Below, in pieces: positions 1 through 23,172 of a stretch of 23,343 bases of DNA. Source of the stretch: a virus (taxonomy: Duplodnaviria; Heunggongvirae; Uroviricota; Caudoviricetes). The number at the start of each line of letters is the position of its first letter. The first letter of the stretch is position 1. Under the pieces are notes generated by a model that had not been told where the DNA came from, did not search any database, and was given only the letters and a program-made list of their open reading frames with translations. The DNA lies in IMG/VR virus record IMGVR_UViG_2541047945_000008, positions 1 through 23,343 of that record; one strand, 5' to 3'. Made by a program: the position numbers and the translations under genes.

Positions 1-1131
1 TCAAATGACCAGTTTTTTCCACTCCTTACCGCGTACATCGTTGTAAATATCGGTCATTTTTTGATTCGAATGGCCTAGCAAAATTTTGGTATCAACCCCC
101 TGCTCTCTGAACAATCGCTCTGATAAAGATCTCTGCTCATGGAAAGAGGGTGGGGTGCCATTAGCACGCCAGTTGTAATCCACAGAATCCCGGGCTTTTT
201 TAAATGCAACGGTTAATGTTGCTGGCTTAACCATCCCGCCGCGCTTAGCTGTCCCTTTCGCGTGATGGTGGTGCAATAGCCACGGACTAAGAACGCAATC
301 GCGGCAGGATGACACTACATCATCCAGGGTGAGATTTAATTTATCGCAACGCAGAGCCAGAGGGATGGCAATCCGGGTTCCTGTTTTTTGCTGTTCGACA
401 TGAAGATAACCATCCCGGATATCCGAAAATTGCATTTTGCAAATATCTGAAAGGCGCTGGCCTGTCATCAGTGCCAGCAGCATACCGCGCTGTAAAAAGT
501 AACCATTCTTTTCCGCTGCGTTATAAATCATCATCCACTCATCAAAAGTCAGTCGCTGTCTTGATATCCGCACCTGCGGTTTTTTTGCCGATTCTGCAGG
601 GTTAAAGCCTGGCGGGACATCGCCCGTTTGCTGAGCTTCCCGGAAAACATCGATCAGTACTTTCCTGAAAATTTGTCCCATTCTGTTATGTCCTCTGGCC
701 TTGTACTCTTCCAGTACTGATACCACATCTTTTACGGTTATGGCATCTAACGGTCTGGTGCCAAAACGTTCATCAAATACCCTGAGAGGGGCCGCTTTCT
801 GTTTCAGCGTGTTGAGTTTGATCTCGCCGTTTTCATATCTTTCCTGTTGAATTTTTCTGTAATTATTCAGAAAAATGGTAACGGTTGATGAACCGCCGGT
901 ATCACTAATAATTTTCTCCTGCAGACTGAGCATTTGTTCCATTTGCTGCCGGGCAAGACGGCTGTTCGCTTCTGCTGCAATAGTTTCTGCCAGTTTCTGG
1001 TCAATACTGCCGAGACCGTGATTTTTGCCTGTTATGGGATGCCTGTAACGCCAGTAAACTTTGTTATTTCTTTTGTCAAAATACGGAGATAATCCCGGAA
1101 CATCGGTTTTATATTTTCGCGGGCGCGCCAT
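1..1131 (-). CDS. int: Phage-type tyrosine integrase (376 aa)
   Basis: Full ORF with stop at the window edge. C-terminal region has the tyrosine-recombinase pattern (LLGHS ... TDIYND). Sits at the prophage end next to an excisionase-like gene. Confidence 0.85.
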   Translation of the reverse strand: MARPRKYKTDVPGLSPYFDKRNNKVYWRYRHPITGKNHGLGSIDQKLAETIAAEANSRLARQQMEQMLSLQEKIISDTGGSSTVTIFLNNYRKIQQERYENGEIKLNTLKQKAAPLRVFDERFGTRPLDAITVKDVVSVLEEYKARGHNRMGQIFRKVLIDVFREAQQTGDVPPGFNPAESAKKPQVRISRQRLTFDEWMMIYNAAEKNGYFLQRGMLLALMTGQRLSDICKMQFSDIRDGYLHVEQQKTGTRIAIPLALRCDKLNLTLDDVVSSCRDCVLSPWLLHHHHAKGTAKRGGMVKPATLTVAFKKARDSVDYNWRANGTPPSFHEQRSLSERLFREQGVDTKILLGHSNQKMTDIYNDVRGKEWKKLVI

Positions 1132-5972: not shown

Positions 5973-5973
5973 A

Positions 5974-6357: not shown

Positions 6358-6382
6358 TTGTGGATGGGGTAGTGAGCGGTGG

Positions 6383-6844: not shown

Positions 6845-6945
6845 ACATAGAGTTTATTTGTTTTACCAATATTATCAAAGATAGTCTGGCTATTGATCTT
6901 TAAAATTAGCGGGGCTAATATTTGCTCGAGGCATAACGTAGAAGG

Positions 6946-7636: not shown

Positions 7637-7707
7637 CTCGCAATATTCATACCGGATCACTTCCGGCAATTTGTGAGTAAAAAGATTCGGTATCAGAAGA
7701 GGTGAGT

Positions 7708-8748
7708 ATGGCTAACGCCTGGCTCAGATTATGGCATGACATGCCAAATGACCCTAAGTGGCGAACAATTGCCAGGGTGTCAGGGCAGCCAATTGCAACA
7801 GTGATGGCAGTGTATATCCACCTTCTGGTGAGCGCGTCACGAAATGTCACGACATGTCACGGCGTGTCACTACGTGGTCACATTGATGTCACGACGGAAG
7901 ATTTAGCAAGTGCGCTTGATGTGACGGAAGAAGTAATTGATTCAATTTTACAGGCAATGCAGGGGCGGGTACTTGATGGAGATTTAATCACCGGATGGGA
8001 AAAACGCCAGGTACTGAAAGAGGACAATGGCAACGTTTCACAAACCGCGAAATCCCCGGCAGAGCGCAAGAGAGCGCAGCGCGAGAGGGAAAAATTACGA
8101 AAACAGAATGAGGGGTGTCACGACGAGTCACGCATATGTCACGACATGTCACGACGAGTCACGACAGATAAAGATACAGATAAAGAATTAAACCCCACAC
8201 ATAACGCGCACGTGCGCGAGAGTGCTCCGACCAGTGAGTCGAGTGGTACGCCGTTGCAGGCAGCAGAACCTGCATCCCTGGATGGACTGAGCGAACCCAT
8301 CGGGAAATTTCCGATGGTCGATGACTGGCATCCGTCGCCGGATTTTCGACGACGGGCTGCGTTGTGGGGGATGGCTTTGCCGGAGCCGGAATTTACACCT
8401 GCTGAACTTGCCGCTTTCCGGGACTACTGGGCAGCGGAGGGGAAAGTTTTCACGCAGGTTCAGTGGGAGCAGAAATTCGCCCGTCACGTAAATCACGTCA
8501 GGGCGCAGGTTAAGCCAGTCAGCAAGGGGGTAAACCATGCAGCAGCACCAGGTGGCACCGCATCACGGGCAGTTCAGGAAATTCGGGCAGCACGTGAGCA
8601 GTGGGAACGTGAAAACGGATTTATCAGCGACGGAAACGGTCTGGAAGCTGTGGGAACTCATGGGGGAGGTTTATTCGAACCGCTGGACCCAGAAGAACGG
8701 GGCCGCACCTTCGAAGCTCTGGATTGCACAGATTGGCGCGATGACTGA
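7708..8748 (+). CDS. Replication initiator (lambda O-like functional analogue) with internal iterons and a DnaT-like C-terminal region
   Basis: ATG at 7708 with SD GAGGTGA (track ORF starts at an upstream GTG). Contains two clusters of GTCACG-type direct repeats. Followed by a P-like gene. Confidence 0.65.
   Translation: MANAWLRLWHDMPNDPKWRTIARVSGQPIATVMAVYIHLLVSASRNVTTCHGVSLRGHIDVTTEDLASALDVTEEVIDSILQAMQGRVLDGDLITGWEKRQVLKEDNGNVSQTAKSPAERKRAQREREKLRKQNEGCHDESRICHDMSRRVTTDKDTDKELNPTHNAHVRESAPTSESSGTPLQAAEPASLDGLSEPIGKFPMVDDWHPSPDFRRRAALWGMALPEPEFTPAELAAFRDYWAAEGKVFTQVQWEQKFARHVNHVRAQVKPVSKGVNHAAAPGGTASRAVQEIRAAREQWERENGFISDGNGLEAVGTHGGGLFEPLDPEERGRTFEALDCTDWRDD
7835..7895. repeat. Iteron cluster 1 (about six GTCAC(G) repeats, 10-11 bp period)
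   Basis: Read directly: cGTCACGaaatGTCACGacatGTCACGgcgtGTCACtacgtgGTCACattgatGTCACGacgg. Confidence 0.6.
8116..8191. other. Putative origin of replication: five 10-bp GTCACGACNN iterons followed by an AT-rich tract
   Basis: GTCACGACGA GTCACGCATAT GTCACGACAT GTCACGACGA GTCACGACAG then ATAAAGATACAGATAAAGAATTAAA. Iterons plus AT-rich region inside the initiator gene, as in lambda ori. Confidence 0.6.
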
Positions 8749-9202
8749 GCAGCAAATCCGACAGGTCTGCCGCCAGTGCATGGACCGCTGCCGGGCGGGT
8801 GAAACATGGCCTCCGGACCTGGCTGAGTTTGTGGCGCTGATTTCAGAAAGCGGGGCCAATCCATTTGGCCTGACGGTGGATGCTGTGATGGAGGAGTACC
8901 GCCGCTGGCGTGATGAGTCCTGGCGATATGACGGAAGCGACAAATATCCGTGGCCTCAGCCTGTGCTGTACCACATCTGCCTCGAAATGCGTACCAGAGG
9001 GATTGAGCGCCAGATGACGCAGGGTGAGTTAAAACGACTTGCGGAACGGCAACTGACGAAATGGGCAAAGCATGTTGGTAACGGGATGAGTGTTCCGCCA
9101 GTGCGACGACAACTGGAAGGGGCGAAACACCCGCAAGGGCCAACGCCAATTGAACGGCTGAAACAGGAATACGAACGCCGGAAGGCAGCTGGTTTTATTT
9201 GA
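8537..9202 (+). CDS. Lambda P-like replication protein (helicase loader), 221 aa
   Basis: Resembles lambda P as recalled (WPPDLAEFVALI vs FLPSPGQFVAWC; KYPWPQPVLYHICLEMR vs YPWKSNAHYWLV). SD AAGGGGG 7 nt before the ATG at 8537. Overlaps the O-like gene by 212 nt; alternative in-frame start at 8660. Confidence 0.7.
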   Translation: MQQHQVAPHHGQFRKFGQHVSSGNVKTDLSATETVWKLWELMGEVYSNRWTQKNGAAPSKLWIAQIGAMTEQQIRQVCRQCMDRCRAGETWPPDLAEFVALISESGANPFGLTVDAVMEEYRRWRDESWRYDGSDKYPWPQPVLYHICLEMRTRGIERQMTQGELKRLAERQLTKWAKHVGNGMSVPPVRRQLEGAKHPQGPTPIERLKQEYERRKAAGFI

Positions 9203-9235
9203 ATCTGAGAAACGATTTTGTCGGAGGAAATTTTA

Positions 9236-10006
9236 ATGGAAACCGTATTTGACGCACTGAAAGCAATGGGAAAAGCCACATCGGTAGAACTGGCCGCGCG
9301 ACTTGATATCAGTCGTGAAGAGGTTCTCAACGAGCTGTGGGAACTCAAAAGAAAAGGCGTCGTTGATAAAACTGGTCACACCTGGTTTCTGGCTGGCGAA
9401 GGTGAATCCCGGGTAACCGAAGAGCGGCCAGTAAAATCTGAAGCACAGGATATGCTGACCGGGGAGGTCGAACAAAAAGTTACCGCAGACATGATGATTG
9501 AGTTTATCGGTCAGGATGGGGCTAAAACGTGTGAGGAACTGGCGGGTAAGTTCGGTGTCAGTACTCGCAAGGTTGCTTCCACGCTGGCGGTGGTAACCGC
9601 AACGGGGCGGCTGGCACGCGTTAATCAGAACGGTAAATTTCGTTACTGCATGCCGGGCGATAATTTACCAGCAGAGCCGAAAGCCGCGCTGGTAACGGAA
9701 AGTGATGGTAAGGCCTTTCCTCAGCCAGCAGGTGCTGCGTTACCAGTCCGGGAAGCCGCAACACAGGAAGAAATTAAAACAGAAACTGTGGCGGACATTG
9801 TGCAGCCGTTGCCATCGTTTACCGAAACGCAAGCAGATGAGCTGATTTTTCCGTCCCTTCGCAGGGCAAACCTGGCGCTGCGCAGGGCGAAAAGTGATGT
9901 TCAGAAGTGGGAGCGAGTCTGCGCCGCGCTGCGGGAGCTGAACAAGCACCGGGATATTGTTCGACAGATTACTGATTCTTCCCGCCGTGTTGTATCGGAA
10001 AAGTGA
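9236..10006 (+). CDS. Hypothetical phage protein with two predicted winged-helix-like segments (256 aa)
   Basis: ATG at 9236 with SD GGAGG (track ORF starts at TTG 9218). HTH-like segments [27 protein letters not shown] and [21 protein letters not shown]. Confidence 0.55.
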
Positions 10007-10021
10007 TTGCCGGAGGCGCTT

Positions 10022-10447
10022 ATGGCAAAAGTATTTACACAAGAAGAGCGGGAAAAAATTAAAGGGCAGGTTGTTGAACTTGTACGTCTGAGCGGTCGCG
10101 AGACGTTGCGGCAACTGGAAGCCAAGACAGGTGCGACAAGATATCTGATGAGTGTTCTCGCCAGAGAGCTGGTTGCCAGTGGCGATGTATACAACTCTGG
10201 TTACGGGTTATTCCCGTCTGAACAGGCGCGTAAGGACTGGCAAAATGCTCGCAAAAAACTCTCAAGGGCAAAGGTGAAGAAACCTGCAGTGGTTGATCCG
10301 GACCTTATCTGGTCGTTACCAGACGGCGAAATACGCCGCTACGACAGGCGCCTGAATATAATCTGTCGCGAGTGCCGGAAGAGCGAAGCTATGCAGCGTG
10401 TACTGGCATTTTATCAAGGAAATGTTAGGTATTTTAGACGTTACTAG
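10022..10447 (+). CDS. Hypothetical phage protein (141 aa)
   Basis: ATG at 10022 with SD GGAGG (track ORF starts at TTG 10007). No family recognised. Confidence 0.5.
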   Translation: MAKVFTQEEREKIKGQVVELVRLSGRETLRQLEAKTGATRYLMSVLARELVASGDVYNSGYGLFPSEQARKDWQNARKKLSRAKVKKPAVVDPDLIWSLPDGEIRRYDRRLNIICRECRKSEAMQRVLAFYQGNVRYFRRY

Positions 10448-10600
10448 ATTAAAGAGCATTAGTTCAGATGTGAATTGACATTTTCATGGCGCAGGGTAGA
10501 GCCAGCGTGGTTGTCCGCTTTGCGTCAAAACCAGATATTACCAGATTTAGACATATATTCCCGATAGCCCTGCTCTGATGCTACACTCTGTGCTATTTTC

Positions 10601-11287
10601 ATGACCCCAATAAAAATATTTATGACTATTGCTGATTTCAAACGGCCTAAATTGGAGCTCCCAAACGGGGCAAACAAACTACTACTGCACTCTTGCTGTG
10701 CTCCATGTTCCGGTGAAGTGATGGAGGCGCTTCAGGCCTCGGGAATCGACTACACCATCTTTTTCTACAACCCGAACATTCATCCTCAGAAAGAGTATTT
10801 AATTCGTAAGGATGAAAATATTCGCTTTGCTGAACAACACGGCGTGCCGTTTATCGATGCTGATTACGACACCGACAACTGGTTTGAACGTGCCAAAGGA
10901 ATGGAATGGGAGCCTGAGAGGGGGATCCGTTGTACCATGTGTTTTGACATGCGTTTTGAGCGGACAGCGTTGTACGCTGCTGAAAATGGTTTCAGTGTGA
11001 TCAGCAGTTCACTGGGCATTTCACGCTGGAAAAATATGCAGCAGGTTAACGAGTGTGGGCGGCGAGCTGTTGCGCATTATCCGGGTATGGTGTACTGGGA
11101 TTATAACTGGCGCAAGCAGGGCGGCTCGTCCCGTATGATTGAAATCAGCAAGCGCGAAAAATTCTATCAGCAGGAATATTGTGGCTGTGTGTATTCTCTG
11201 CGCGATACCAATCTACACCGCAAATCTCAGGGACGCCCTCTTATCAAAATTGGCCAACTCCACTACGGAAAAGAAGAGAAGGAGTGA
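10601..11287 (+). CDS. queH: DUF208/QueH-like protein (putative B12-independent epoxyqueuosine reductase), 228 aa
   Basis: N-terminal [11 protein letters not shown] motif with additional conserved Cys (CTMC, CGC), recalled as the DUF208/QueH signature. No obvious SD; alternative ATG at 10622. Confidence 0.6.
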
Positions 11288-11524
11288 TTTTATGGATCAC
11301 CTTTCTGATTGATTTCATATTGGCGAGGTGACGTGAGTTAAGTAGAATGGCTGCGGGTGCTTGAGGCTATCTGTCTCAGGCATGAACACTGAAAGGCAGA
11401 TAGAGAAAAGCCCCAGTTAACATTTCGCGTCCTGCAAGACGCTTAACATTAATCTGAGGCCCAATCTATGTCTCACAAATGTAGGTTAGCCTCTTACGTG
11501 CCGAAAGGCAAGGGGAAGCAGGCT

Positions 11525-11680
11525 ATGAAGCAGCAAAAGGCGATGTTAATCGCCCTGATCGTCATCTGTTTAACCGTCATTGTGACGGCACTGGTAACGA
11601 GGAAAGACCTCTGCGAGGTACGAATCCGAACCGGCCAGACGGAGGTCGCTGTCTTCACAGCTTACGAACCTGAGGAGTAA
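11525..11680 (+). CDS. hokD: Hok/Gef-family membrane toxin (51 aa), HokD/RelF-like
   Basis: MKQQKAMLIALIVICLTVIVTALVTRKDLCEVRIRTGQTEVAVFTAYEPEE matches my recollection of HokD/RelF. A structured leader lies upstream and a terminator downstream. Confidence 0.8.
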   Translation: MKQQKAMLIALIVICLTVIVTALVTRKDLCEVRIRTGQTEVAVFTAYEPEE

Positions 11681-11749
11681 GAGACCCGGCGGGGGAGTAA
11701 TCTCCCGCCACCTCTGATGTGCCAGGCATCCTCAACGCACCCGCACTTA

Positions 11750-11769
11750 ACCCGCTTCGGCGGGTTTTT
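11750..11769 (+). terminator. Rho-independent terminator after hok
   Basis: cccgc-ttcg-gcggg followed by TTTTT. Confidence 0.6.
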
Positions 11770-11845
11770 GCATTAGTCTGGTTGACAAAAATAGAAAAAT
11801 GCGAAAATATGTGGTTTACGAATTCTAAAAAAAGCGAAACTTGAA

Positions 11846-12496
11846 ATGAATGAAAATCAGTTAGCTCCTTGTTGGGAATTTCAACCTTATCTTGCTGAAA
11901 ACTATGTTCGCCACTTGTTGGCGGAGATCGCTAACGTACTTGAGCAGCTGTACTATCATAAGCACGCATTAGACAGCAACTGGTCTGAAGGTGTAAGGGC
12001 TTATGATTGGGTCAGAAATCATCTTATTCAAAATGAAGATGCAATTCCTGGCCTTGAGATGATTTCCAAGGGGTTGGACTATGTAGTTGCTTTAAATAAA
12101 GTTCCGCTACAATTTACCAAAGATTGCATTAATAACCCCAAAAAGAAACATCGTCTGCGTCGAAATAAAGTAGAGTATGAGCAGCTCTCATTGTTTGGTG
12201 ATGTTGAGGCTGAGCAAGATATTACATGGCGAGTCATAGCTGAGCCTTTTTTATCCGAAGAGGGCGATGGTGAATTAGAGTCCACACTGCCTCGTTGGGA
12301 GGTAGCTCTTGTTGGATTTAATACTTATGGTGCTCAGATTAGTATAGTTTCTCATCAATCTACAGCATCGATGCCGCTTATGCCTCTTGATTATAACACA
12401 CTCCCTGACGAAGCGGAGATTAATAAGGTGCCTCTTCGTCGGCGTACGAAGGATAAAGATTTGGATGTGAGCAGTGATGGAACATCAGGTGAATAA
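11846..12496 (+). CDS. Hypothetical protein (216 aa), candidate toxin/effector partnered with an HTH-peptidase
   Basis: AT-rich ORF overlapping the downstream HTH-XRE/ImmA-like gene by 20 nt. Possible promoter TTGACA at about 11781 with an AT-rich -10. No domain recognised. Confidence 0.6.
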   Translation: MNENQLAPCWEFQPYLAENYVRHLLAEIANVLEQLYYHKHALDSNWSEGVRAYDWVRNHLIQNEDAIPGLEMISKGLDYVVALNKVPLQFTKDCINNPKKKHRLRRNKVEYEQLSLFGDVEAEQDITWRVIAEPFLSEEGDGELESTLPRWEVALVGFNTYGAQISIVSHQSTASMPLMPLDYNTLPDEAEINKVPLRRRTKDKDLDVSSDGTSGE

Positions 12497-13580
12497 CTTC
12501 ACTGAGTATCGGGGTGATAAGCTCAAACTAGCGAGAATGGCTGTTGGGCTTTCTTGTGAAGAGTTAGCCGAAAAAATTGGCAAGACAAAGCAATTCGTTA
12601 GCAAACTGGAGAAGGGGTGCAGGCCATCGGAGCAATGTCTTGAGTTAATATCTTCAGCGCTTATGATTAAGTCCAGTTTTCTTTTTACTGAACGAAAATA
12701 CGCTCTGGAAAGTGATGTCTGCCATTTTCGGAGTAAGAAGTCCAGGACTCAAACGCTGACTAATAGTGTATTGGCCAGGGCTGAGATTCTTAATATTATA
12801 ATTTCTGCTGTTGAAGGTGAAATCGAATTTCCTGACGTTAACATACCGGAGCACCCAGGGGCTGAATTACTTACTCCGAATGATATTGAGCGAGTGGCAG
12901 AAGATTGTCGCCGTGCCTGGAATTTAGGTCTTGGCCCTATATCATCAATGGTTAAATTGGCGGAGAGTTTAGGGGTAATCGTTGCGCATGTTACGGGAGT
13001 CGATGATCGTGTTGATGCTTTTACTGTTCACAATAACAGGCCTGTTATCATCAGGAACAATGTTAAAAAAAGCATATGTAGATTTCGCTCTGATTTAGGT
13101 CATGAATTAGGGCATTTAGTAATGCATGAGGGCATAACGACAGGTGATAAACTTACGGAATCACAAGCCGATCACTTTTCGAGCGCCTTATTAGTTCCCA
13201 GGTTATCTTTCATTAAAGAATTTCCACGAATACGAGGTAAGCAATTCGACTGGAATGCTCTGGTTGAATTTAAACTTAGATGGAAAATCAGCCTTAAAAT
13301 GTGTATTTATCGAGCCAGCGCATTAGGCTTATTGACCCAGGAACAGGCAAGAACTGGCTATATGCATCTTAATTCCAGAGGGTATACGAGAGTTGAACCT
13401 GGTGATGAACTTTTGCGCCCTGAAGAACCCGGCATGCTGGCCGAGGCGATTGAAATGCTGGATGATGCAACCTGGCTAAGAATTCTTATGAAAACTGGCT
13501 TGAGCCAAGATTTAATTCGTGAGTTGTTCTCCATCAACAGACCTATTACAAATCCAAGAAATATTTTCCAGATTGTTTGA
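12477..13580 (+). CDS. HTH-XRE DNA-binding domain fused to an ImmA/IrrE-type (M78/COG2856) zinc metallopeptidase, 367 aa
   Basis: N-terminal HTH (LKLARMAVGLSCEELAEKIGKTKQFVSKLEKG) and HExxH zinc-binding motif (HELGHLVMHE). Track ORF starts at GTG 12474; ATG at 12477. Confidence 0.8.
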   Translation: MEHQVNNFTEYRGDKLKLARMAVGLSCEELAEKIGKTKQFVSKLEKGCRPSEQCLELISSALMIKSSFLFTERKYALESDVCHFRSKKSRTQTLTNSVLARAEILNIIISAVEGEIEFPDVNIPEHPGAELLTPNDIERVAEDCRRAWNLGLGPISSMVKLAESLGVIVAHVTGVDDRVDAFTVHNNRPVIIRNNVKKSICRFRSDLGHELGHLVMHEGITTGDKLTESQADHFSSALLVPRLSFIKEFPRIRGKQFDWNALVEFKLRWKISLKMCIYRASALGLLTQEQARTGYMHLNSRGYTRVEPGDELLRPEEPGMLAEAIEMLDDATWLRILMKTGLSQDLIRELFSINRPITNPRNIFQIV

Positions 13581-13584
13581 GTAT

Positions 13585-13606
13585 ACCCGCTTCGGCGGGT
13601 TTTTTG
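13585..13606 (+). terminator. Rho-independent terminator
   Basis: acccgc-ttcg-gcgggt followed by a T-run; same hairpin family as the one after hok. Confidence 0.6.
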
Positions 13607-13737
13607 TTTTTATTTTCAACGTGTTTGAAGTTTTGGACGGTGCCAGAATAGAATCAAAAATACTTAAGTAGCGCGCAGGGAGAAGAGGGATGGACCCCGA
13701 ACAGGGGGAGTGCTATTTATCTGGAAGGATTCTGTTG

Positions 13738-13911
13738 ATGAAAATCGAAGAATTACGTGAAATTTTTAGTGAAGATGGCCTCTATGCTGTGCGCGTTGAG
13801 AATGGGGGTATTACCTACACAGCGTTAATTCCTGATGATCATGTAGTGTTATCTGTTGAGGCATTCATTGAATACTTGGAAAGACTCGGTTTCAAGGTAG
13901 TTCGGGAATAA
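13738..13911 (+). CDS. Hypothetical small protein (57 aa)
   Basis: ATG at 13738 with SD GGAAGGA 8 nt upstream; the track ORF extends to an upstream ATG lacking proper SD spacing. Confidence 0.4.
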   Translation: MKIEELREIFSEDGLYAVRVENGGITYTALIPDDHVVLSVEAFIEYLERLGFKVVRE

Positions 13912-13970
13912 GTTATAATACGTGAGCCAGCCTGAACAACTGGCAACCTGCAGCGCCATTGGAGATGACA

Positions 13971-14243
13971 ATGGCGCATAATTTCAAATTTCGCAATTCT
14001 GATTCTGCCTTTGCCAGCAGGCACGGGTGGCGTTCTCACGCATTCAAATATGACTGGTATCAGCACGATCCCTGTACTGAAGAACAGGCCGAATGGCTGA
14101 TTCATAACTACCGCAGACGTGGATATGAGTTTAGGAAAGCCCTCACCCTCGATTATCGTCACTGGATAATCTACGTCAGACTCCCTTATTCCGAACGCCC
14201 ACCGCGTCCGTCCCGCACATTCCAGCAACGCATCTGGAGGTAA
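13971..14243 (+). CDS. Hypothetical phage protein (90 aa)
   Basis: ATG at 13971 with SD GGAG 5 nt upstream (track ORF begins at TTG). Its stop is coupled to the next gene. Confidence 0.5.
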   Translation: MAHNFKFRNSDSAFASRHGWRSHAFKYDWYQHDPCTEEQAEWLIHNYRRRGYEFRKALTLDYRHWIIYVRLPYSERPPRPSRTFQQRIWR

Positions 14244-14244
14244 C

Positions 14245-15291
14245 GTGCGGGTATTACTTCGACCTGTTCTGGTACCGGAACTCGGGCTGGTGATCGTTAA
14301 GCCGGGCCGTGAATCCATGCCGGTATTCCACAATACCCGGGTACTGGTGGAGCCGGAACCGAAAAGCATGCGTAATCTGCCGTCCGGGGTCGTTCCTGCC
14401 GTTCGCCAGCCGCTGGCGGAGGATAAATCATTACTGCCATTTTTCAGCGACGAACGAGTGATTCGTGCTGCTGGTGGCGCTGGCGCATTGTCTGACTGGT
14501 TACTGCGCCATGTTAAATCCTGCCAGTGGCCACACGGCGATTATCACCACAGTGAAACCGTCATTCACCGTTATGGTACCGGCGCAATGGTGTTGTGCTG
14601 GCACTGCGACAACCAGCTGCGCGACCAGACCTCCGAATCACTCGGGCAACTTGCTCACCAAAACCTGTCTGCATGGATGATTGACGTCATACGCCATGCA
14701 ATGAATGGCTCGCAGGAACGGGAGTTATCGCTGGCTGAATTATCCTGGTGGGCGGTCCGCAATCAGGTGGCGGACGCGCTACCGGAAGCGGTATTACGTC
14801 GTTCGCTGGGGTTGCGTGCGGAAAAAATCCGCTCAATGTACCGTGAAAGCGACATCGTACCGGGAGAGCAGACCGCCACCAGCATACTGAAGCAGCGCAC
14901 AAAAAATCTTGCGCCGCTGCCTCACGCCCACCAGCAAAACCCGCCACAGGAAGAGACGGTGGTCAGCATTGCCGTTGATCCTGAGTCTCCGGAATCTTTC
15001 ATGAAACGACCTAAACGTCGCCGCTGGGTTAACGAGAAATACACACGCTGGGTGAAGACACAGCCGTGTGCGTGTTGTGGTAAGCCAGCCGACGATCCCC
15101 ATCACCTGATTGGTCATGGTCAGGGCGGAATGGGGACAAAATCTCACGATATTTTCACGCTACCGCTGTGTCGGGAGCATCACAACGAGCTTCATGCGGA
15201 TCCTCTGGCGTTCGAAGAAAAGCATGGTTCTCAGGTTGATTTAATTTTTCGTTTTCTTGATCACGCCTTTGCAACTGGCGTGCTTGGGTAA
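14245..15291 (+). CDS. DUF968-like prophage protein (YdfU-like), 348 aa
   Basis: GTG start preceded by GGAGG. C-terminal Cys/His cluster CACCGKPADDPHHL ... CREHHNELH, recalled as typical of DUF968 proteins in lambdoid nin regions. Confidence 0.65.
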   Translation: MRVLLRPVLVPELGLVIVKPGRESMPVFHNTRVLVEPEPKSMRNLPSGVVPAVRQPLAEDKSLLPFFSDERVIRAAGGAGALSDWLLRHVKSCQWPHGDYHHSETVIHRYGTGAMVLCWHCDNQLRDQTSESLGQLAHQNLSAWMIDVIRHAMNGSQERELSLAELSWWAVRNQVADALPEAVLRRSLGLRAEKIRSMYRESDIVPGEQTATSILKQRTKNLAPLPHAHQQNPPQEETVVSIAVDPESPESFMKRPKRRRWVNEKYTRWVKTQPCACCGKPADDPHHLIGHGQGGMGTKSHDIFTLPLCREHHNELHADPLAFEEKHGSQVDLIFRFLDHAFATGVLG

Positions 15292-15303
15292 AAGAGGTGA
15301 CTG

Positions 15304-15663
15304 ATGCTCATAGATTTGGTTTTACCTTACCCGCCGACGGTGAACACTTACTGGCGACGCCGTGGCAGCACATATTTTATCTCGGAGGAGGGAAAGCGTT
15401 ATCGCCGGGCTGTGGCGCTTATTGTTCGCCAGCAGCGGCTGAAATTAAGCCTGTCCGGAAGGCTGGCGATAAAGGTGATTGCAGAGCCACCGGATAAGCG
15501 CCGCCGCGACCTGGACAATATCCTGAAGGCACCACTGGATGCGCTGACGCATGCCGGACTACTTATAGACGACGAGCAGTTTGATGAAATCAATATTGTG
15601 CGCGGTCAGCTCGTTCCTGGTGGGCGGCTGGGGATAAAAATCACAGAACTGGAGTGCGCATGA
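15304..15663 (+). CDS. rusA: RusA Holliday-junction resolvase
   Basis: 119 aa with RusA hallmarks (PPTVNTYW; DKRRRDLDNILKAPLDALTHAGLLIDDEQ). SD GAGGTGA upstream. Confidence 0.85.
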   Translation: MLIDLVLPYPPTVNTYWRRRGSTYFISEEGKRYRRAVALIVRQQRLKLSLSGRLAIKVIAEPPDKRRRDLDNILKAPLDALTHAGLLIDDEQFDEINIVRGQLVPGGRLGIKITELECA

Positions 15664-16349
15664 ATAACCAGTATTTACAGTTTGTGCGTGAGCAGCTCAT
15701 TATCGCCACCGCTGATTTGAGTGGGGCAACAAAAGGTCAGCTTGAAGCCTGGCAGGAGAATGCCATGTTCGATACAGGGCGTTACAGGCGTAAAAAAATC
15801 CGGTACCGCGATGAAGTGACCGGAAAAATGATAACGCGGGATAATCCACCAATCCCGGGAAAACAATCGCTGGCGAAGGGGACGTCAATTCCTCTGGTCA
15901 GTCAGGTTGCTTTTTCTACATCATCATGGCGGCGGGCTGTTTTGTCTCTTGAAGAACATCATAAAGCCTGGTTGTTGTGGTGTTACAGCGGAAATACTTG
16001 CTGGGAGTATCAGATCGCGATAACGCAGTGGGCATGGACAGAATTTAAGACTCACTCTGGTACCAGGAAAATTGCAGGGAAGACACAGGAACGCCTGAAA
16101 AAATTAATCTGGCTGGCTGCACAGGATGTCAGGAGATGGGTTATAGGACATGATATCTACCAGCAACAGGAGCTTGCCCGTCTGTGTGGGATTAAGCCTG
16201 ACAACTGGAGCCACAATTATGTGAGCTACTGGCGTGAAATACTCGACATTTTTATGAACCTCGATACCGAATCTCTGATTTGCACTGTGAAAAGGAGATC
16301 TCAACAAAAAGCGGCATTTTTGCAGCGAGATATTGCAAAAGTCAATTAG
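15660..16349 (+). CDS. Late-gene antiterminator Q-like protein (229 aa)
   Basis: ATG overlaps the rusA stop (ATGA). Position downstream of rusA and upstream of the tRNA/late region, and size, fit a Q antiterminator. Confidence 0.6.
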   Translation: MNNQYLQFVREQLIIATADLSGATKGQLEAWQENAMFDTGRYRRKKIRYRDEVTGKMITRDNPPIPGKQSLAKGTSIPLVSQVAFSTSSWRRAVLSLEEHHKAWLLWCYSGNTCWEYQIAITQWAWTEFKTHSGTRKIAGKTQERLKKLIWLAAQDVRRWVIGHDIYQQQELARLCGIKPDNWSHNYVSYWREILDIFMNLDTESLICTVKRRSQQKAAFLQRDIAKVN

Positions 16350-16396
16350 ATAGCATATATTTTATGTAAATGTGATATATTGCTGTAAAGTGTATA

Positions 16397-16423
16397 AACC
16401 CGCTCAAATGTGCGGGTTTTTTG
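16397..16423 (+). terminator. Rho-independent terminator downstream of Q
   Basis: cccgc-tcaaatgt-gcggg followed by TTTTTT. Confidence 0.55.
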
Positions 16424-16495
16424 CTTAACTCTGTGGACCTTTTTATCTGTAGTTGTAATATATGGATATTGTTACAATTTAGGTCGGTGAGCTTA

Positions 16496-17260
16496 ATGGA
16501 AGAACAGCACGGTAATTACTTTATAAAACGAATTCAGTTGATTGGAAGAGGGGCATTTGGCTTTGTTGAACACGTTAAGGTTTACAACCTCAATAAAGGT
16601 GAATGCGGGGATTATGCTAGAAAGGTTTTAGCACCCGAAAAACCAGAGCTTTTGGCGCAAATAGAGCAGTTTAGAAGGCGTTTTAAAAGGGAGGTTGTGT
16701 ATCAATCACATTGCGTACATAGCAATATTGTTCCTATTTATTTGTGCGATTTGTTTGTTGAGAATCCATGGTTCATTATGGATAAAGCAGAATGTGATCT
16801 TGAGCACGAAATAACGAACAACCTTCTTACAACAGATCAAAAAATTTCAATAGTGAAAATGGTATTAGATGGTGTAGCTTACATCCATGCCAAAGGCTAT
16901 TTACACAGAGATATAAAACCCTTTAATGTTTTGCGATTTAGCGACGGAACATACAAGGTGTCTGATTTTGGTCTGGTAAAAGATACGAATCCCGAAGGGG
17001 ATACCACTAAATTGACCGAGATCGGTACCCGTATGGGAAGTACAAGATATATGGCTCCCGAGATTTTATATAATGCAGAGTATTCAGTTAAGACTGATGT
17101 TTATGCTGTGGGACGGTTAATTGAAGACTTAAATTTAGATGATAAAAAAATAAAGCCTATCATAGCTAAGTGCACAAGGATGGATAAAGATGATAGATAT
17201 CAGACAATAGATGATGTGGCGTTTGATTTTGCGCATTCTTTTTTAAGGAGTGAGTCATGA
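16496..17260 (+). CDS. Hanks-type (eukaryotic-like) Ser/Thr protein kinase, kinase domain only (254 aa)
   Basis: Canonical subdomains: GRGAFGFV (Gly loop), YARKVL (catalytic Lys), HRDIKPFN, DFG, MAPE, DVYAVGR. ATG at 16496 (track ORF starts at TTG 16421). AT-rich. Confidence 0.85.
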   Translation: MEEQHGNYFIKRIQLIGRGAFGFVEHVKVYNLNKGECGDYARKVLAPEKPELLAQIEQFRRRFKREVVYQSHCVHSNIVPIYLCDLFVENPWFIMDKAECDLEHEITNNLLTTDQKISIVKMVLDGVAYIHAKGYLHRDIKPFNVLRFSDGTYKVSDFGLVKDTNPEGDTTKLTEIGTRMGSTRYMAPEILYNAEYSVKTDVYAVGRLIEDLNLDDKKIKPIIAKCTRMDKDDRYQTIDDVAFDFAHSFLRSES

Positions 17261-18000
17261 TTCAGCTGATAGCGACTTCATCATTCTCGTATCCAAAAGA
17301 ACCAGGTAGGGTCAACGAAGATTCATTGCTTCCTCCAAAAATTGTAGGAGACGGCATCTTATTTGCCGTAGCTGATGGTGTAGGTTCATACTCTGGTGCC
17401 AGTTATGCTTCATCCATGGCAATCGCTGAACTTTCAGCATTGACAAGTTTATCTTTTGATGCAGTTCCGAATGTATTTGCTGAAGTTAAGCGAAAAGTTA
17501 TGTCGTTAGCTGAAGTTAATGATGAGTTCGATAAAGCTGCTACTACACTTACCTTTTGTTATGTTTGTGATAGCGGAATTATTATTGGTCATATTGGTGA
17601 TTGTCGCTTGTATTGCATTGGAGAAAAGAAAGCATATCAATTGACGAAGGACGATACCAGACATCAGATGTTAATTGATCAGAATATTTTTAAACCCAGA
17701 GATTTGAAGAATAAACCGGGAAAAAATATCTTAACGACTGCCATAGCCTCAAATGTTGATATGGAATACGACTGTGATTTTATCCCGTGGAAAGATTTGC
17801 CTGGTATTAACGGGTTGTATCATCTGTGTATCATGTCTGATGGAGTTCATAACGTTTGGGAAAAACGCCCCAGATTTACATCAAATACTATGAGTAATAG
17901 TCAGAAGTTTTCTAATGGTATTTTGCGTCGTATAGAGAGAGCCGGACCTGATGATGACTTTTCTTTAGTAAGTATAATGGTGCGTGTGACGTCAGATTAG
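17257..18000 (+). CDS. PP2C-family (PPM) Ser/Thr protein phosphatase (247 aa)
   Basis: PPM motifs: NEDS, FAVADGVGS, GDCRLY, MSDGV, GPDDD. Start overlaps the kinase stop (ATGA), so the pair is translationally coupled. Confidence 0.85.
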   Translation: MIQLIATSSFSYPKEPGRVNEDSLLPPKIVGDGILFAVADGVGSYSGASYASSMAIAELSALTSLSFDAVPNVFAEVKRKVMSLAEVNDEFDKAATTLTFCYVCDSGIIIGHIGDCRLYCIGEKKAYQLTKDDTRHQMLIDQNIFKPRDLKNKPGKNILTTAIASNVDMEYDCDFIPWKDLPGINGLYHLCIMSDGVHNVWEKRPRFTSNTMSNSQKFSNGILRRIERAGPDDDFSLVSIMVRVTSD

Positions 18001-18073
18001 TTGTATAAACCCAGTAGGGAATGCTAATTTCCCATACTACAGAGTAAAGAAAAACTTAATTTTAATGTGAAAA

Positions 18074-18096
18074 GGCTGCTATCAGGCGGCCTTTTT
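18074..18096 (+). terminator. Rho-independent terminator after the phosphatase
   Basis: ggctgc-tatcag-gcggcc (one G-U pair) followed by TTTTT. Confidence 0.55.
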
Positions 18097-18110
18097 ATGT
18101 CTGAAAAGCT

Positions 18111-18437
18111 GTGCAGTACGTTAAACACGCTTGTGGTTGTGAATGCCGACTGCGGCGGTATTTTGGCGTGACAGCGCAGGTGCCGTATACCGATGTCTGG
18201 ACGCATAAACCGGTGCAGTTCTATCCCGGGAAACATCCGTGCGAAAAACCGGCAGAAATGCTGCAGCAGATAATCAGCGCAAGCAGTCGTCCGGGAGACC
18301 TGGTTGCAGATTTTTTTATGGGCTCAGGTTCAACGGTAAAAGCGGCACTGGCGCTCGGGCGTCGTGCGATTGGCGTTGAACTGGAGACCGGACGTTTTGA
18401 GCAGACAGTCAGGGAAGTTCAGGATTTAATCGTTTGA
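18111..18437 (+). pseudogene. C-terminal fragment of an N6-adenine/N4-cytosine DNA methyltransferase; N-terminal catalytic part absent
   Basis: HPCEKP ... PGDLVADFFMGSGSTVKAALALGRRAIGVE matches the HPTQKP plus FxGSGS(T) AdoMet-binding end of this methylase class. No DPPY-type region upstream; only about 110 bp separate it from the phosphatase gene. Confidence 0.55.
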
Positions 18438-18486
18438 AACGGATGAGATTGCAGAATTAATTACGCACCATTATTATTCTGCTTCC

Positions 18487-18562
18487 GGCCCTTTAGCTCA
18501 GTGGTGAGAGCGAGCGACTCATAATCGCCAGGTCGCTGGTTCAAATCCAGCAAGGGCCACCA
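18487..18562 (+). tRNA. tRNA with CAU anticodon (Ile2-lysidine or Met type)
   Basis: Hand-folded cloverleaf: acceptor GGCCCTT/AAGGGCC, D-arm AGCTCAGTGGTGAGAGC, anticodon loop CTCATAA, T-arm GGTTCAAATCC, 3' CCA. Confidence 0.8.
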
Positions 18563-18569
18563 TCACATA

Positions 18570-18646
18570 CCGCCATTAGCTCATCAGGAAAGAGCGCCAG
18601 CCTTCGAAGCTGGTTGCGCGGAGTTCGGGTCCCCGAAGGCGGTCCA
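18570..18646 (+). tRNA. tRNA-Arg-like (anticodon UCG), slightly degenerate
   Basis: D-arm GCTC...GAGC, anticodon stem CCAGC/GCTGG with loop CTTCGAA, T-loop TTCGGGT, 3' CCA. One mismatch each in the acceptor and T stems. Confidence 0.55.
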
Positions 18647-18659
18647 TTATCTGTATCCT

Positions 18660-18736
18660 GCGTTGTTAGCTCAGCCGGACAGAGCAATTGCCTTCTAAGC
18701 AATCGGTCACTGGTTCGAATCCAGTACAACGCGCCA
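18660..18736 (+). tRNA. tRNA-Arg (anticodon UCU)
   Basis: Perfect acceptor stem GCGTTGT/ACAACGC, D-arm TAGCTCAGCCGGACAGAGC, anticodon loop CTTCTAA, T-arm GGTTCGAATCC, discriminator G, CCA. Confidence 0.85.
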
Positions 18737-18782
18737 CACTTATTTTCCCTGGCTCGCTTTTGCGGGCTTTTTTTTAAATGTC

Positions 18783-18996
18783 TCACAATTCAGGCGGTTG
18801 ACTGTTGTCTGGTTTGCGGGGAGTTTGTTAAAAGAAACTGGCATGGTGAATCCCCCTGTGCGGAGGGGCAATCAGCGAGTAGGTATATGGGATAATCGCG
18901 GATTCAGGTGCTGGTACTGAATTCACCGGGAGGCACCCGGCACCATGCAATGGCACATAGCGCCACTCTCCAGCCCCTCTCCGGAGGGGCTTTTCT
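18783..18996 (+). repeat. Repeat unit A: structured element ending in a terminator (candidate sRNA gene)
   Basis: Shares blocks with unit B: tcacaattcag, ttgac, tttgttaaaa, catggtgaatcccc, a cccc/gggg hairpin, caccgggaggcacccggcaccatg and terminator gcccctc-tccg-gaggggc plus T-run. Confidence 0.5.
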
Positions 18997-19250
18997 GTGC
19001 CGGATACATCACAGTTTCTGGAACCTTAGGTACTACAGTATCAGTCAGGGTGCTATATTTTCAGATGTGATGAAAGCCTGTCAGCAGGCAGGGCGTATCG
19101 GAAATGACCCAGTAGAGAAAACGTTGACTCAGATACCGGTGCTGAGTTACCGGGAAACCGGCATCACATGACCGCTATCCTTCCAGGCCCATCCGCTCCG
19201 GTGGGCCTTTTTACTGCAGAAAACAGGTTCCCCGTTAAATGCTATGTTGC

Positions 19251-19483
19251 TCACAATTCAGTAAGTTGACAGTTGCCTGTCAGACTGGGCATTTGTTAAA
19301 AAAATTTCGCATGGTGAATCCCCCTGAGCGGAGGGGCGACTGGTGACGGTATAATCTCTGATTATCAAAACGAGAATGACGCGGGTTTAGTGGCACCGGG
19401 CTGAACTCACCGGGAGGCACCCGGCACCATGTGCATGATGATACAGATACGCGGCTTTAGCCCCTCTCCGGAGGGGCTTTCTT
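19251..19483 (+). repeat. Repeat unit B: second copy of the structured element
   Basis: Same conserved blocks and the same terminator hairpin (agcccctctccggaggggctttctt) as unit A; internal segments diverge. Confidence 0.5.
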
Positions 19484-19711
19484 ATGGACAAAAAAAGCCC
19501 GCGCTGGGAGACGCGGGCGGCAAGGAATAAACAATAAAACGTGAAGTAATATTTCAGCTGGCGAATAATACCCCATAGTAATCACTCTGCGCAACTGCGC
19601 GGTCTTTTTCGAATTGCGGGCTGTAGTCTCCCTTCTGCCATTGTCCTGTAACTTCCGGACTTCAGCCTGCTCCTTATCTGACTCACAACATTATCCCGCC
19701 CGGGAGGATTC

Positions 19712-19855
19712 ATGGCATTTAAACACTATGACGTGGTCAGGGCGGCATCGCCGTCAGACCTTGCGAAACGACTGACACAAAAACTGAAGGAGGGCTGGCA
19801 GCCGTTTGGTAGTCCGGTGGCCATAACCCCTTATACCCTGATGCAGGCGATTTGA
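19712..19855 (+). CDS. Small phage protein (47 aa as read) whose 3' end and stop codon are supplied by the IS629 terminus
   Basis: ATG at 19712 with SD GGAGG 5 nt upstream; the ORF ends at the TGA formed by the first bases of the IS inverted repeat (TGAACCGCC...). Confidence 0.5.
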   Translation: MAFKHYDVVRAASPSDLAKRLTQKLKEGWQPFGSPVAITPYTLMQAI

Positions 19856-19906
19856 ACCGCCCCGGGAATCCTGGAGACTAAACTTCCTGAGAAAGAGGTA
19901 AACAGG

Positions 19907-20233
19907 ATGACTAAAAATACTCGTTTTTCCCCTGAAGTCCGTCAACGGGCAGTCCGTATGGTTCTGGAAAGTCAGGGCGAATATGACTCACAATGGGCGA
20001 CAATTTGTTCCATTGCTCCAAAGATTGGCTGTACGCCGGAGACTCTGCGTGTCTGGGTTCGCCAGCATGAGCGGGATACCGGGGGCGGTGATGGAGGGCT
20101 CACCACCGCTGAACGTCAGCGTCTGAAAGAGCTGGAGCGTGAAAATCGTGAACTGCGCCGCAGTAACGATATCCTTCGCCAGGCTTCCGCTTATTTTGCG
20201 AAGGCGGAGTTCGACCGCCTCTGGAAAAAATGA
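19907..20233 (+). CDS. IS629 transposase OrfA (HTH, 108 aa)
   Basis: [57 protein letters not shown]... with a leucine-zipper-like C-terminus. Confidence 0.85.
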
Positions 20234-21120
20234 TGCCACTGCTGGATAAGCTGCGTGAGCAGTACGGGGTCGGACCGCTATGCAGCGAACTGCATATTGC
20301 CCCGTCAACGTATTACCACTGTCAGCAACAGCGACATCATCCGGATAAACGCAGTGCCCGTGCGCAGCGCGATGACTGGCTGAAGAAAGAGATACAGCGC
20401 GTATACGATGAAAATCACAAGGTATACGGTGTGCGTAAAGTCTGGCGTCAGTTGTTACGGGAAGGTATCAGAGTGGCCAGATGCACTGTGGCACGTCTCA
20501 TGGCGGTTATGGGACTTGCCGGTGTTCTCCGGGGTAAAAAGGTCCGTACGACCATCAGCCGGAAAGCCGTTGCCGCAGGCGACCGCGTAAACCGTCAGTT
20601 CGTGGCAGAACGACCTGACCAGCTGTGGGTGGCTGATTTTACTTACGTCAGCACATGGCAGGGCTTCGTCTATGTGGCGTTCATCATTGATGTGTTTGCC
20701 GGATACATTGTGGGGTGGCGGGTCTCATCGTCCATGGAGACGACATTCGTGCTGGATGCACTGGAGCAGGCGTTATGGGCCCGTCGACCGTCCGGCACGG
20801 TCCATCACAGTGATAAAGGTTCTCAGTATGTATCGCTGGCCTACACACAGCGGCTTAAGGAAGCCGGATTACTGGCATCAACAGGAAGTACAGGCGACTC
20901 GTATGACAACGCGATGGCGGAGAGCATCAATGGTCTTTACAAAGCGGAGGTAATACACCGTAAGAGCTGGAAAAACCGTGCAGAAGTGGAACTGGCCACA
21001 CTCACGTGGGTGGACTGGTATAACAATCGACGATTGCTGGAAAGGCTGGGCCATACTCCTCCGGCAGAAGCAGAAAAAGCTTATTATGCTTCCATCGGAA
21101 ACGATGATCTGGCAGCCTGA
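20230..21120 (+). CDS. IS629 transposase OrfB (DDE integrase-like catalytic domain)
   Basis: 296-aa ORF overlapping OrfA (ATGA); rve-type DDE domain (WVADFTYV ... HHSDKGSQY ... DNAMAES). Confidence 0.85.
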
Positions 21121-21164
21121 GTTCACAGATAAAATACTCTCCAGGAAACCCGGGGCGGTTCACA

Positions 21165-21425
21165 CAGTATCAAGTAAGCCCGGAGACTTCTTCCTATAGA
21201 TCGTATTATCAACGTATTCAGACACAGTCAGCAGGTGCTCATACCCACTCGCTGTCTGGTACTGCAGCAAGTTCTGGCGCACATGCACATACTGTAGGTA
21301 TTGGTGCGCATACGCACTCCGTTGCGATTGGTTCACATGGACACACCATCACCGTTAACGCTGCGGGTAACGCGGAAAACACCGTCAAAAACATCGCATT
21401 TAACTATATTGTGAGGCTTGCATAA
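21165..21425 (+). pseudogene. 3' fragment of a side tail-fibre gene (C-terminal approx 86 codons, no start)
   Basis: Open frame from the IS629 end to TAA at 21423-21425: ...[66 protein letters not shown], with His-containing GxHxH repeats typical of tail-fibre C-termini. Followed directly by tfa. Confidence 0.7.
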
Positions 21426-22009
21426 TGGCATTCAGAATGAGTGAACAAGCACGGACCATAAAAATTTATAATCTGCTGGCCGGAACTAATGAATTTATTG
21501 GTGAAGGTGACGCATATATTCCGCCTCATACAGGTCTGCCAGCAAACAGTACCGATATTGCACCACCAGATATTCCTGCTGGCTTTGTGGCTGTTTTCAA
21601 CAGTGATGAGGCATCGTGGCATCTCGTTGAAGACCATCGGGGGAAAACGGTTTATGACGTAGCGTCAGGGGACGAGTTATTTATTTCTGAACTCGGTCCG
21701 TTACCGGAAAATGTTACCTGGTTATCGCCGGAAGGGGAGTTTCAGAAGTGGAACGGCACAGCCTGGGTGAAGGATACGGAAGCAGAAAAACTGTTCCGGA
21801 TCCGGGAGGCGGAAGAAACAAAAAACAAACTGATGCAGGTAGCCAGTGAGCATATTGCGCCGCTTCAGGATGCTGCAGATCTGGAAATTGCAACGGAGGA
21901 AGAAACCTCATTGCTGGAAGCCTGGAAAAAGTATCGGGTGTTGCTGAACCGTGTTGATACATCAACTGCACCTGATATTGAGTGGCCTACGAACCCTGTC
22001 AGGGAGTAA
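21425..22009 (+). CDS. tfa: Tail fibre assembly protein (Tfa), 194 aa
   Basis: Start overlaps the tail-fibre stop (TAATG). Conserved Tfa C-terminus ([32 protein letters not shown]). Confidence 0.8.
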
Positions 22010-22063
22010 TCATTGGGATTATGCCGCAGCACGTCTTAAGCAAGAACGTGCTGCGGTTGGATG

Positions 22064-22720
22064 CTATTTTTTCCCTGAAGCGGAAAACATTACTACAGTA
22101 CCTTGAACCTTGGTTTTAACATTCTCGAAATGCTCTGAGAGTATATGTGTTAAGCCTTCTTCGGAATCTTTTGTGTTTGAAAAGATGCCTTTCTGATTGT
22201 AAATGCGCATCAGTTTTTGACCGAAGCTATTGTGCACAACTCCATCGCCAAGAATTGTGGCTCCGTATAGAGTTCCATCGTCAGTTAAGGCCTGCGCCGC
22301 ATTGCGTATTACACAGCTTTTTGTAGATATATTTCCAGGCAGGCAGTGAAGAAGGTAAAACATGGAAATGGAATCAAATTGACCATGTAACGCCGCGGGA
22401 TAAGGTTCAAAAACATCATGGCTAATTTTATGTTTAATTTTTGATTCCCCAGCCCTTGTAGATGCCGCGTTCAGGCTAGCTTCGTTCAAATCCATTAAAG
22501 ATATCAGACTACTCTCAGGTACGTGAGTAAGGTAAAACCCAGTTCCAACACCAATATCCAGATGGTTGTTACCTACATGTTCCAGAAAGTGTGGAAGAAG
22601 GTGTTCCTTTGTAGGACATCCCCATGCAAGCCGATTTGATACTCCCAAAACCCACCAGTCATAAAGCTTTAGGGTAAGTGGTGTGTAAATTTTAGCCCCA
22701 TCATCTGTGTTTTTTTTCAT
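22064..22720 (-). CDS. Class I SAM-dependent methyltransferase (approx 218 aa), low-GC cargo gene
   Basis: Motif I LDIGVGTGFY. Convergent with tfa. SD GGTGA 5 nt before the ATG at 22720; the track ORF extends to 22732. Confidence 0.7.
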   Translation of the reverse strand: MKKNTDDGAKIYTPLTLKLYDWWVLGVSNRLAWGCPTKEHLLPHFLEHVGNNHLDIGVGTGFYLTHVPESSLISLMDLNEASLNAASTRAGESKIKHKISHDVFEPYPAALHGQFDSISMFYLLHCLPGNISTKSCVIRNAAQALTDDGTLYGATILGDGVVHNSFGQKLMRIYNQKGIFSNTKDSEEGLTHILSEHFENVKTKVQGTVVMFSASGKK

Positions 22721-22788
22721 TGATTTCACCATGTTATAGTTTTATTTGTGAATTAAATCAATTATGGCGATGAATTACAAGGGGTTAA

Positions 22789-23058
22789 ATGCTGCCGCAG
22801 CATAGCGATATTGAAATAGCCTGGTATGCTTCGATACAGCAGGAGCCGAATGGCTGGAAGACCGTCACCACACAGTTCTACATCCAGGAATTCAGTGAGT
22901 ATATTGCGCCACTGCAGGATGCTGTAGATCTGGAAATCGCAACGGAGGAAGAAAGATCGTTGCTGGAGGCATGGAATAAATATCGGGTATTGTTGAATCG
23001 TGTTGATACATCAACTGCACCTGATATTGAGTGGCCTGCAAATCCTGTCAGGGAGTAA
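22789..23058 (+). CDS. Chimeric small ORF whose C-terminal approx 50 aa duplicate the Tfa C-terminus (possible tfa remnant)
   Basis: C-terminus [50 protein letters not shown] is near-identical to the end of Tfa (21425..22009); the N-terminal part is unrelated. Confidence 0.4.
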
Positions 23059-23172
23059 TCATTGGGATTATGCCGCAGATACGTCGTATGCAGGAACGTG
23101 CTGCGGTTAGTTTGTGAGCTTTCGATAGTGGTTGTTATTTTTGCCCTTATTTGTTCCGGAGGCCATGGTTCA

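Follow-up and report, generated by a model that had tools for sequence, protein, structure and literature searches.

An IS629-type element at the joint of a 28-kb late-gene deletion in an ompW-integrated lambdoid prophage of Escherichia coli

Transposition in the IS3 family proceeds by a copy-out/paste-in mechanism, which leaves the donor site intact and does not in itself delete the donor flanks. Within this family, the IS629/IS1203/IS3411 group, found in Escherichia coli and Shigella, consists of elements of 1,310 bp with TG...CA termini and imperfect inverted repeats, in which orfA and orfB are accompanied by a −1 frameshift, an ALIL pseudoknot and an rve (DDE) catalytic domain. Simple insertions of these elements are bounded by duplications of 3–4 bp; in O157:H7, a duplication is present at only 21 of 47 IS629 sites and absent at the remaining 26 (PMC3271280), which indicates that rearranged copies of IS629 are common.

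IS-associated decay of E. coli prophages, linked to IS629 in O157, leaves a single IS at the joint, with the late genes lost and the early and accessory genes retained. The prophage described here shares all of these features, but resides in a non-EHEC ST10 host (PMC9250482), is integrated at ompW and is not an Stx phage. Members of the same IS group are also found inserted inside nanS-p in Stx2a phages, where the encoded esterase has a DUF1737/SASA/C-terminal layout that defines the NanS-p architecture (PMC10462455). The gene type that is hit is the same in both cases (a DUF1737-SASA esterase downstream of Q), although the Stx2a phage insertions (PMC10462455) lie within or next to nanS-p, whereas the present site is one end of a 28-kb deletion.

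A further parallel is provided by the IS150-mediated rbs deletions of the E. coli long-term evolution experiment, which reportedly (Cooper and colleagues, in 2001) arise by insertion followed by recombination with a resident copy. These resemble the present case in that an IS3-family element is involved and that the deletion extends from a fixed left junction to a variable right end point; they differ in that they were tracked experimentally, whereas the present case is known from its end product alone.

The window (the whole 23,343-nt stretch of DNA that was analysed) is 100% identical to E. coli LC-1302-2020 (NZ_CP091756.1) and MMC-J-0105. LC-1302-2020 is an ST10 rectal-swab isolate with a blaKPC-3 plasmid (PMC9250482), and carries at the 3' end of ompW a lambdoid, non-Stx prophage of approximately 23.7 kb. 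The left part of the prophage runs from ompW through int, xis, exo, dicB, repressor and cro-like genes, replication genes, queH, hokD and rusA to Q. Q is followed by a Ser/Thr kinase and a PP2C phosphatase, three tRNAs (the last intact late-region features ahead of the break), an esterase stump, the IS, a tail-fibre stump and tfa, after which come a methyltransferase, tfa fragments, an ompW fragment and yciE. Across the whole prophage from ompW to yciE, the annotation of NZ_CP091756.1 contains no holin, endolysin, terminase, portal, capsid or tail genes. The original prediction, made from the sequence of the window, was of a cryptic prophage that keeps its accessory cargo, and this is borne out, since the lysis, head and tail genes are missing and the kinase/phosphatase pair, tRNAs and methyltransferase are kept. 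The features at and around the joint are listed in Table 1.

Table 1. Positions of the features discussed in the text, in window coordinates except for the last row, which refers to contigs of related prophages.
Feature	Position	Strand	Evidence or remark
Integrase gene, attL end	1..1131	-	ompW directly upstream; ompW fragment and yciE past the right end (NZ_CP091756.1)
Three phage tRNAs (Ile/Met-CAT, Arg-TCG, Arg-TCT)	18487..18736	+	ARAGORN, Rfam, PGAP; downstream of Q
Esterase 5' stump	19712..19852	+	codons 1-47 of 617; DUF1737 only; NanS-p-like SASA-family carbohydrate esterase gene
Complete IS629-type (IS3 family) IS	19853..21162	+	1,310 bp, without target-site duplication
Left inverted repeat	19853..19893	+	TGA (bases 1-3) stops the esterase stump
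Transposase orfA + orfB	19907..21120	+	ORF list, Pfam, PGAP note 'programmed frameshift', Rfam ALIL
Right inverted repeat	21122..21162	+	
Side tail-fibre 3' remnant	21163..21425	+	2 bases of split codon 922, codons 923-1008, stop
tfa (tail-fibre assembly, 194 aa, intact, orphaned)	21425..22009	+	Pfam Caudo_TAP, E = 1.1e-44
Sister IS copies	L004:4891-6200; L005:4891-6200; L003:18131-19440 and 28024-29333		3-4 bp duplications each

The IS has the ends and the coding organisation of the IS3 family and the IS629 group. Its terminal inverted repeats are imperfect and 41 nt long (TGAACCGCCCC...GGGGCGGTTCA), with arms that are 78% complementary (TGAACC...GGTTCA) and termini of the form 5'-TG...CA-3'. 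The two overlapping ORFs characteristic of the group are both open: orfA (19907-20233, 108 aa) matches the Pfam family HTH_Tnp_1, and orfB (20230-21120, 296 aa) matches HTH_21, rve and rve_3, with the −1 frameshift represented by an ALIL pseudoknot (Rfam, 120 bits) at 20188-20304. Judged by its sequence, the element is a probable IS629 isoform, a status defined by at least 95% nucleotide identity to the ISfinder IS629 reference. Sub-types of IS629 that are 4–5% apart have already been separated in published work (PMC3271280), and because the window IS is 99.6% identical to a PGAP-named IS629 copy (over bases 1-795) and only about 96% identical to the O157/O111 copies (which carry the NCBI label IS1203), it would fall outside the main EHEC sub-type. 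The suggestion that IS629 points to an EHEC lineage does not hold: of 5,426 complete E. coli genomes, 3,043 (56%) contain matches that cover at least 80% of the IS, on chromosomes and plasmids alike, the O157/O111 copies are the more distant ones, and the host is ST10, a commensal-type, non-EHEC E. coli.

The genes on both sides of the IS are truncated. On the left, an ORF of 47 aa (19712-19855 including the stop) begins at an ATG and ends, as had been predicted, at a TGA supplied by the inverted repeat. The original prediction had placed the IS between a small gene and a tail-fibre gene reduced to its last 86 codons, and while the location is right, the small gene is the stump of a 617-aa esterase gene: it agrees at 100% identity with the beginning of a 1,854-bp gene in the relatives VR50, ML35 and 23CRST038 and matches Pfam DUF1737 (E = 7.7e-17). 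The intact esterase contains DUF1737, SASA and DUF6645 domains. The NanS-p-type architecture is complete in the intact VR50 allele, which lies between Q/tRNAs and the holin gene, whereas in the window only DUF1737 (residues 1-47) is left. The window esterase is thus a pseudogene, in which codon 47 is the last before the left end of the deletion.

On the right, the anticipated start-less frame encoding a His-repeat fibre C-terminus is found, and it does end at the start of tfa. Ser codon 922 (TCA) of the fibre gene is split at the joint, and is followed by 86 complete codons (21165-21422) and a TAA (21423-21425) that shares one base with the tfa ATG at 21425. Read backwards, the frame remains open into the IS as far as 21108, and the ORF list contains no ATG, GTG or TTG ORF of at least 30 aa ending at 21425. 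The encoded peptide carries four G-x-H-x-H-type repeats (GAHTHS, GAHAHT, GAHTHS and GSHGHT), matches Pfam Phage_fiber, and is the product of a remnant that is 99.95% identical to the 3' end of a 3,027-bp fibre gene in VR50 and ML35. The intact fibre of 1,008 aa consists of phage_tail_N, Gp34_trimer, Collar and Phage_fiber domains; of such a Lambda Stf-like side fibre the window retains no more than the C-terminal 86 residues, which include the His repeats, together with the intact tfa. A consensus scan found no + strand promoter at the right end of the IS that could serve the fibre stump and tfa, promoter-like sites being at shuffle level. Two public pseudogene calls can be corrected here, as the "DUF1737 protein" is the esterase stump and the "hypothetical protein" is the fibre stump.

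Alignment to intact lambdoid relatives, which had been proposed as the check, shows both flanks to be colinear with an undeleted prophage and the interval between them to contain every lysis, head and tail gene. The whole prophage was read through in three relatives, ML35, 23CRST038 and VR50, all of which are integrated at ompW. In BLAST comparison with VR50 (contig L007), window position 19852 corresponds to position 1059 (100% identity over 1,000 bp) and window position 21163 to position 29426 (99.95% over 2,181 bp), in the same orientation. The break points are separated by 28,366 bp in VR50, 27,538 bp in ML35 and 30,865 bp in 23CRST038; the ML35 interval has its own IS200C insertion and a loss in the capsid region, and that of 23CRST038 has an ISEc23 insertion. 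In VR50, the interval contains 30 complete annotated genes from holin to lom (including lysozyme, Rz, terminase, portal, protease, decoration and capsid proteins, the whole tail and J), as well as most of the esterase gene (92%) and of the fibre gene (91%). With 47 of 617 esterase codons and 86 of 1,008 fibre codons remaining at the joint, the difference represents a loss in the window and not a gain in the relatives. A single IS without a duplication is thus bounded by flanks that are non-adjacent yet colinear in the relatives, as is characteristic of an IS-bounded deletion.

Approximately 22 other complete genomes match window positions 1-19852 at 99.5-100% and stop matching exactly at the IS edge. 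Four contigs from the look-up of the stump protein described below (L013, L014, L015 and L017) also end at the break, three of them running on with the G or GC of the intact gene; they are simply contig ends, and are uninformative as evidence for a hot spot. One of these, a metagenome contig (L015:6141; ENA ERZ27246463 k141_43969), has an identical esterase 5' end that stops exactly at the left break point, in a lambdoid setting of another kind, with Fic, NinB, NinE, NinH and a Q of a different type. An end of this sort would fit a graph branch that separates IS-bearing from intact alleles in the sample, though it could also have arisen by chance.

The IS is abutted by GCGATT on its left side and by CACAGT on its right, and, as the original prediction stated for ATT and CAC, these bases contain no direct repeat of either 3 or 4 bp. 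In this respect the window copy differs from simple insertions of its group, and also from all four sister IS copies in related prophages, which are 99.2-99.7% identical and are each bounded by 3-4 bp direct repeats: AGG and GAG for the two copies in the early region of 23CRST038, and CTGG and CTA for the copies in the fibre gene of CEA106S and SCPM-O-B-12142. Since simple insertions of the same IS duplicate 3-4 bp, the absence of a duplication at the window copy is meaningful, and the ATT/CAC flanks therefore mark a rearrangement rather than a simple insertion. In intact VR50 (L007:1040-1080 and 29406-29446), ATT immediately precedes both end points (GCGATT/GCAG and AGAATT/CACAG). This is neither required nor explained by any of the deletion models tried, and a three-base match is within chance (about 1 in 64 per comparison).

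That the joint is a simple IS insertion or an assembly artefact such as a collapsed repeat, with the late genes still present, is scarcely credible. IS elements commonly cause misassembly in general, but no specific support for this was found here, and both junctions are present in at least five independent assemblies (NZ_CP091756, NZ_CM128543, KE702425, LR890661 and LR890262), four of which are megabase-scale. In two complete RefSeq genomes each junction is covered by a single alignment, ompW and yciE follow the usual chromosomal order at a distance of only 23.7 kb, and two genes are visibly truncated. The pattern that would have spoken for a simple insertion, a target-site duplication together with intact late genes in the same prophage, is absent in both of its parts. 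An exchange between two different prophages is excluded by the recurrence of the same junctions in several assemblies and by the normal order of ompW and yciE. It is very unlikely, too, that the interval was lost independently of the IS, by illegitimate or microhomology-mediated recombination, and that the IS inserted at the joint later. The ATT ahead of both break points in the intact sequence could be taken to favour this, but is within chance, and the IS-less joint implied (...GCGATTCACAGT...) should then have acquired a 3-4 bp duplication, as all four other copies did; an ATT-mediated joint followed by insertion cannot yield ATT-IS-CAC without a repeat. Microhomology acting through the shared ATT predicts a joint with ATT to the right of the IS or CAC to its left, which is not what is observed, and was rejected. 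The ompW-integrated lambda-like prophage has lost approximately 28.4 kb, from esterase codon 48 to side tail-fibre codon 922, probably in one IS-dependent deletion. The route that we consider most likely, with moderate confidence, requires a second copy of the IS: one copy would have inserted into the esterase gene at the target ATT and a second, in the same orientation, into the fibre gene at the target CAC, after which homologous recombination between the two direct copies would have removed the interval along with one IS copy. The left flank of the IS belongs to one site and its right flank to the other, which accounts for the lack of a target-site duplication. The end points, extent and content of the loss, the missing duplication and the recurrence of the structure in several assemblies are observed directly; the order of events and the recombination step are what we infer from the end product.

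This two-step route is favoured because of the copy-out/paste-in mode of the IS3 family, the number of places in the host that match the IS and the repeated insertions in this prophage in other strains; the insertions inside nanS-p of Stx2a phages (PMC10462455) are also in keeping with it. In LC-1302-2020, 22 places match the IS, including one 100% identical copy elsewhere in the genome; in the related prophages, the fibre gene has been hit twice (L004 and L005, independently, in the same orientation, 540 and 464 bp upstream of the window break) and the early region of 23CRST038 twice. The principal alternative, possible but less probable, is a one-step IS-mediated adjacent deletion, in which a single resident copy (in the simplest case that of the esterase gene) attacks an intramolecular target at a distance of 28 kb. 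A tandem (IS)2 dimer or an active IR-IR junction could have served as the intermediate, and the IS would end up attached to the new target CAC, with the intervening DNA released as a circle. Adjacent deletions from IS dimers have been described for IS3-family and IS30-type elements, the product would be the same (a single IS between an old flank and a new one, no duplication, and the loss of one continuous segment), and a two-copy intermediate was seen nowhere among the complete genomes and stump-carrying contigs. Against this, IS3-family copy-out/paste-in normally spares the donor flanks, the independent same-orientation insertions in the fibre gene show that a two-copy state is easily reached, and the single-copy precursor was likewise not found (in the 5,426 complete genomes, nor in viral and metagenome scans of low power). 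The original prediction of an IS629-mediated adjacent deletion thus stands as regards an IS-bounded loss (28,366 bp as measured in VR50), while its one-step mode is inseparable, from the window sequence, from IS–IS recombination, the end products being alike. A concerted event, in which the ends of one IS circle integrate into two distant targets within the transpososome so that insertion and the 28-kb deletion occur together, is set beside the ATT that precedes both sites in the intact phage, and appears highly improbable.

A precursor with only one of the junctions would be recognisable: a simple insertion in the esterase gene would read IS right end, ATT and GCAGCAGAAGG, and a simple insertion in the fibre gene would read ...CAGAATTCAC followed by the IS left end. 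A junction-spanning search found no genome with a single junction among 5,426 complete E. coli genomes. An exact look-up of the 47-aa stump returned six IS-bearing contigs, all of the same prophage, with the IS-tfa arrangement in KE702425.1, LR890661.1 and LR890262.1 and the left junction in three shorter contigs; no precursor was present among the stump-carrying contigs, and every one long enough to cross the IS carries the deletion. Exact-pattern scans for the precursor junctions gave no match in viral contigs, a collection that lacks the real junctions too and hence has low power, and none in metagenome contigs, which carries little weight. The IS copies are so alike that a recombinant mosaic would not show. 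Four apparent precursors were rejected: H3 and H23, whose matches seemingly extended to 21162, have the IS elsewhere in the prophage (merged as one place) and an intact esterase gene, and H58 and H59 are independent fibre-gene insertions, 540 and 464 bp further upstream, with duplications of their own. In LR890262.1 (L010:9500-10900), which has the same IS joint, the sequence past the right end of the prophage is different: a Phage_pRha gene, immediately ahead of trpA, takes the expected place of yciE/yciF/yciG. Identity to the window is no more than 98.8% at this locus, possibly owing to nanopore errors.

The deletion has left a 23.7-kb cryptic prophage with int/xis, immunity and replication functions, Q, the kinase/phosphatase pair, tRNAs, tfa and the methyltransferase. 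As read from its gene content, the loss would account for the cryptic state of the ompW prophage, with neither cell lysis nor particles expected, although it may still excise and confer immunity. It is conceivable that a disarmed prophage of this kind has been kept by selection in a globally spread ST10 sublineage, providing immunity and the kinase/phosphatase cargo without the risk of lysis. The event itself is ordinary and of a known kind, as IS-driven prophage decay is textbook knowledge and the joint was already flagged as pseudogenes in public annotation; the finding has little weight beyond annotation and makes no open question testable, but the joint provides a clean marker junction for one ST10 sublineage.

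Several further features of the prophage were observed. The Ser/Thr protein kinase and PP2C phosphatase pair occupies 16421-18000 (+), between Q and the tRNAs; after it comes the remnant of a DNA methyltransferase gene that has lost its 5' end (about 18150-18437). The first tRNA (18487-18562, +) is called Met (CAT) by ARAGORN and tRNA-Ile by RefSeq, the usual ambiguity for phage tRNAs of the ileZ type, which carry a lysidine modification. The stretch that separates the tRNAs from the esterase stump contains two copies of the STnc100 sRNA family (Rfam), at 18812-19002 and 19280-19489 (+), with scores of 136 and 165 bits, and each copy is closed by a terminator-like hairpin. To the right of the joint, Rfam IS009 (224 bits) matches inside tfa at 21768-21966, and the 3' end of tfa is present as a direct repeat of 216 nt (21843-22058 and 22892-23108, 89% identical). 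Between these repeats, in the opposite orientation, lies the class I SAM-dependent methyltransferase gene (22064-22732, -), which looks like a moron inserted by recombination within tfa. In the early region, the DicF sRNA (4546-4597, -) adjoins dicB and the sok antisense RNA (11355-11530, +) accompanies hokD, both of these pairs being known features of Qin/Rac-like cryptic prophages.
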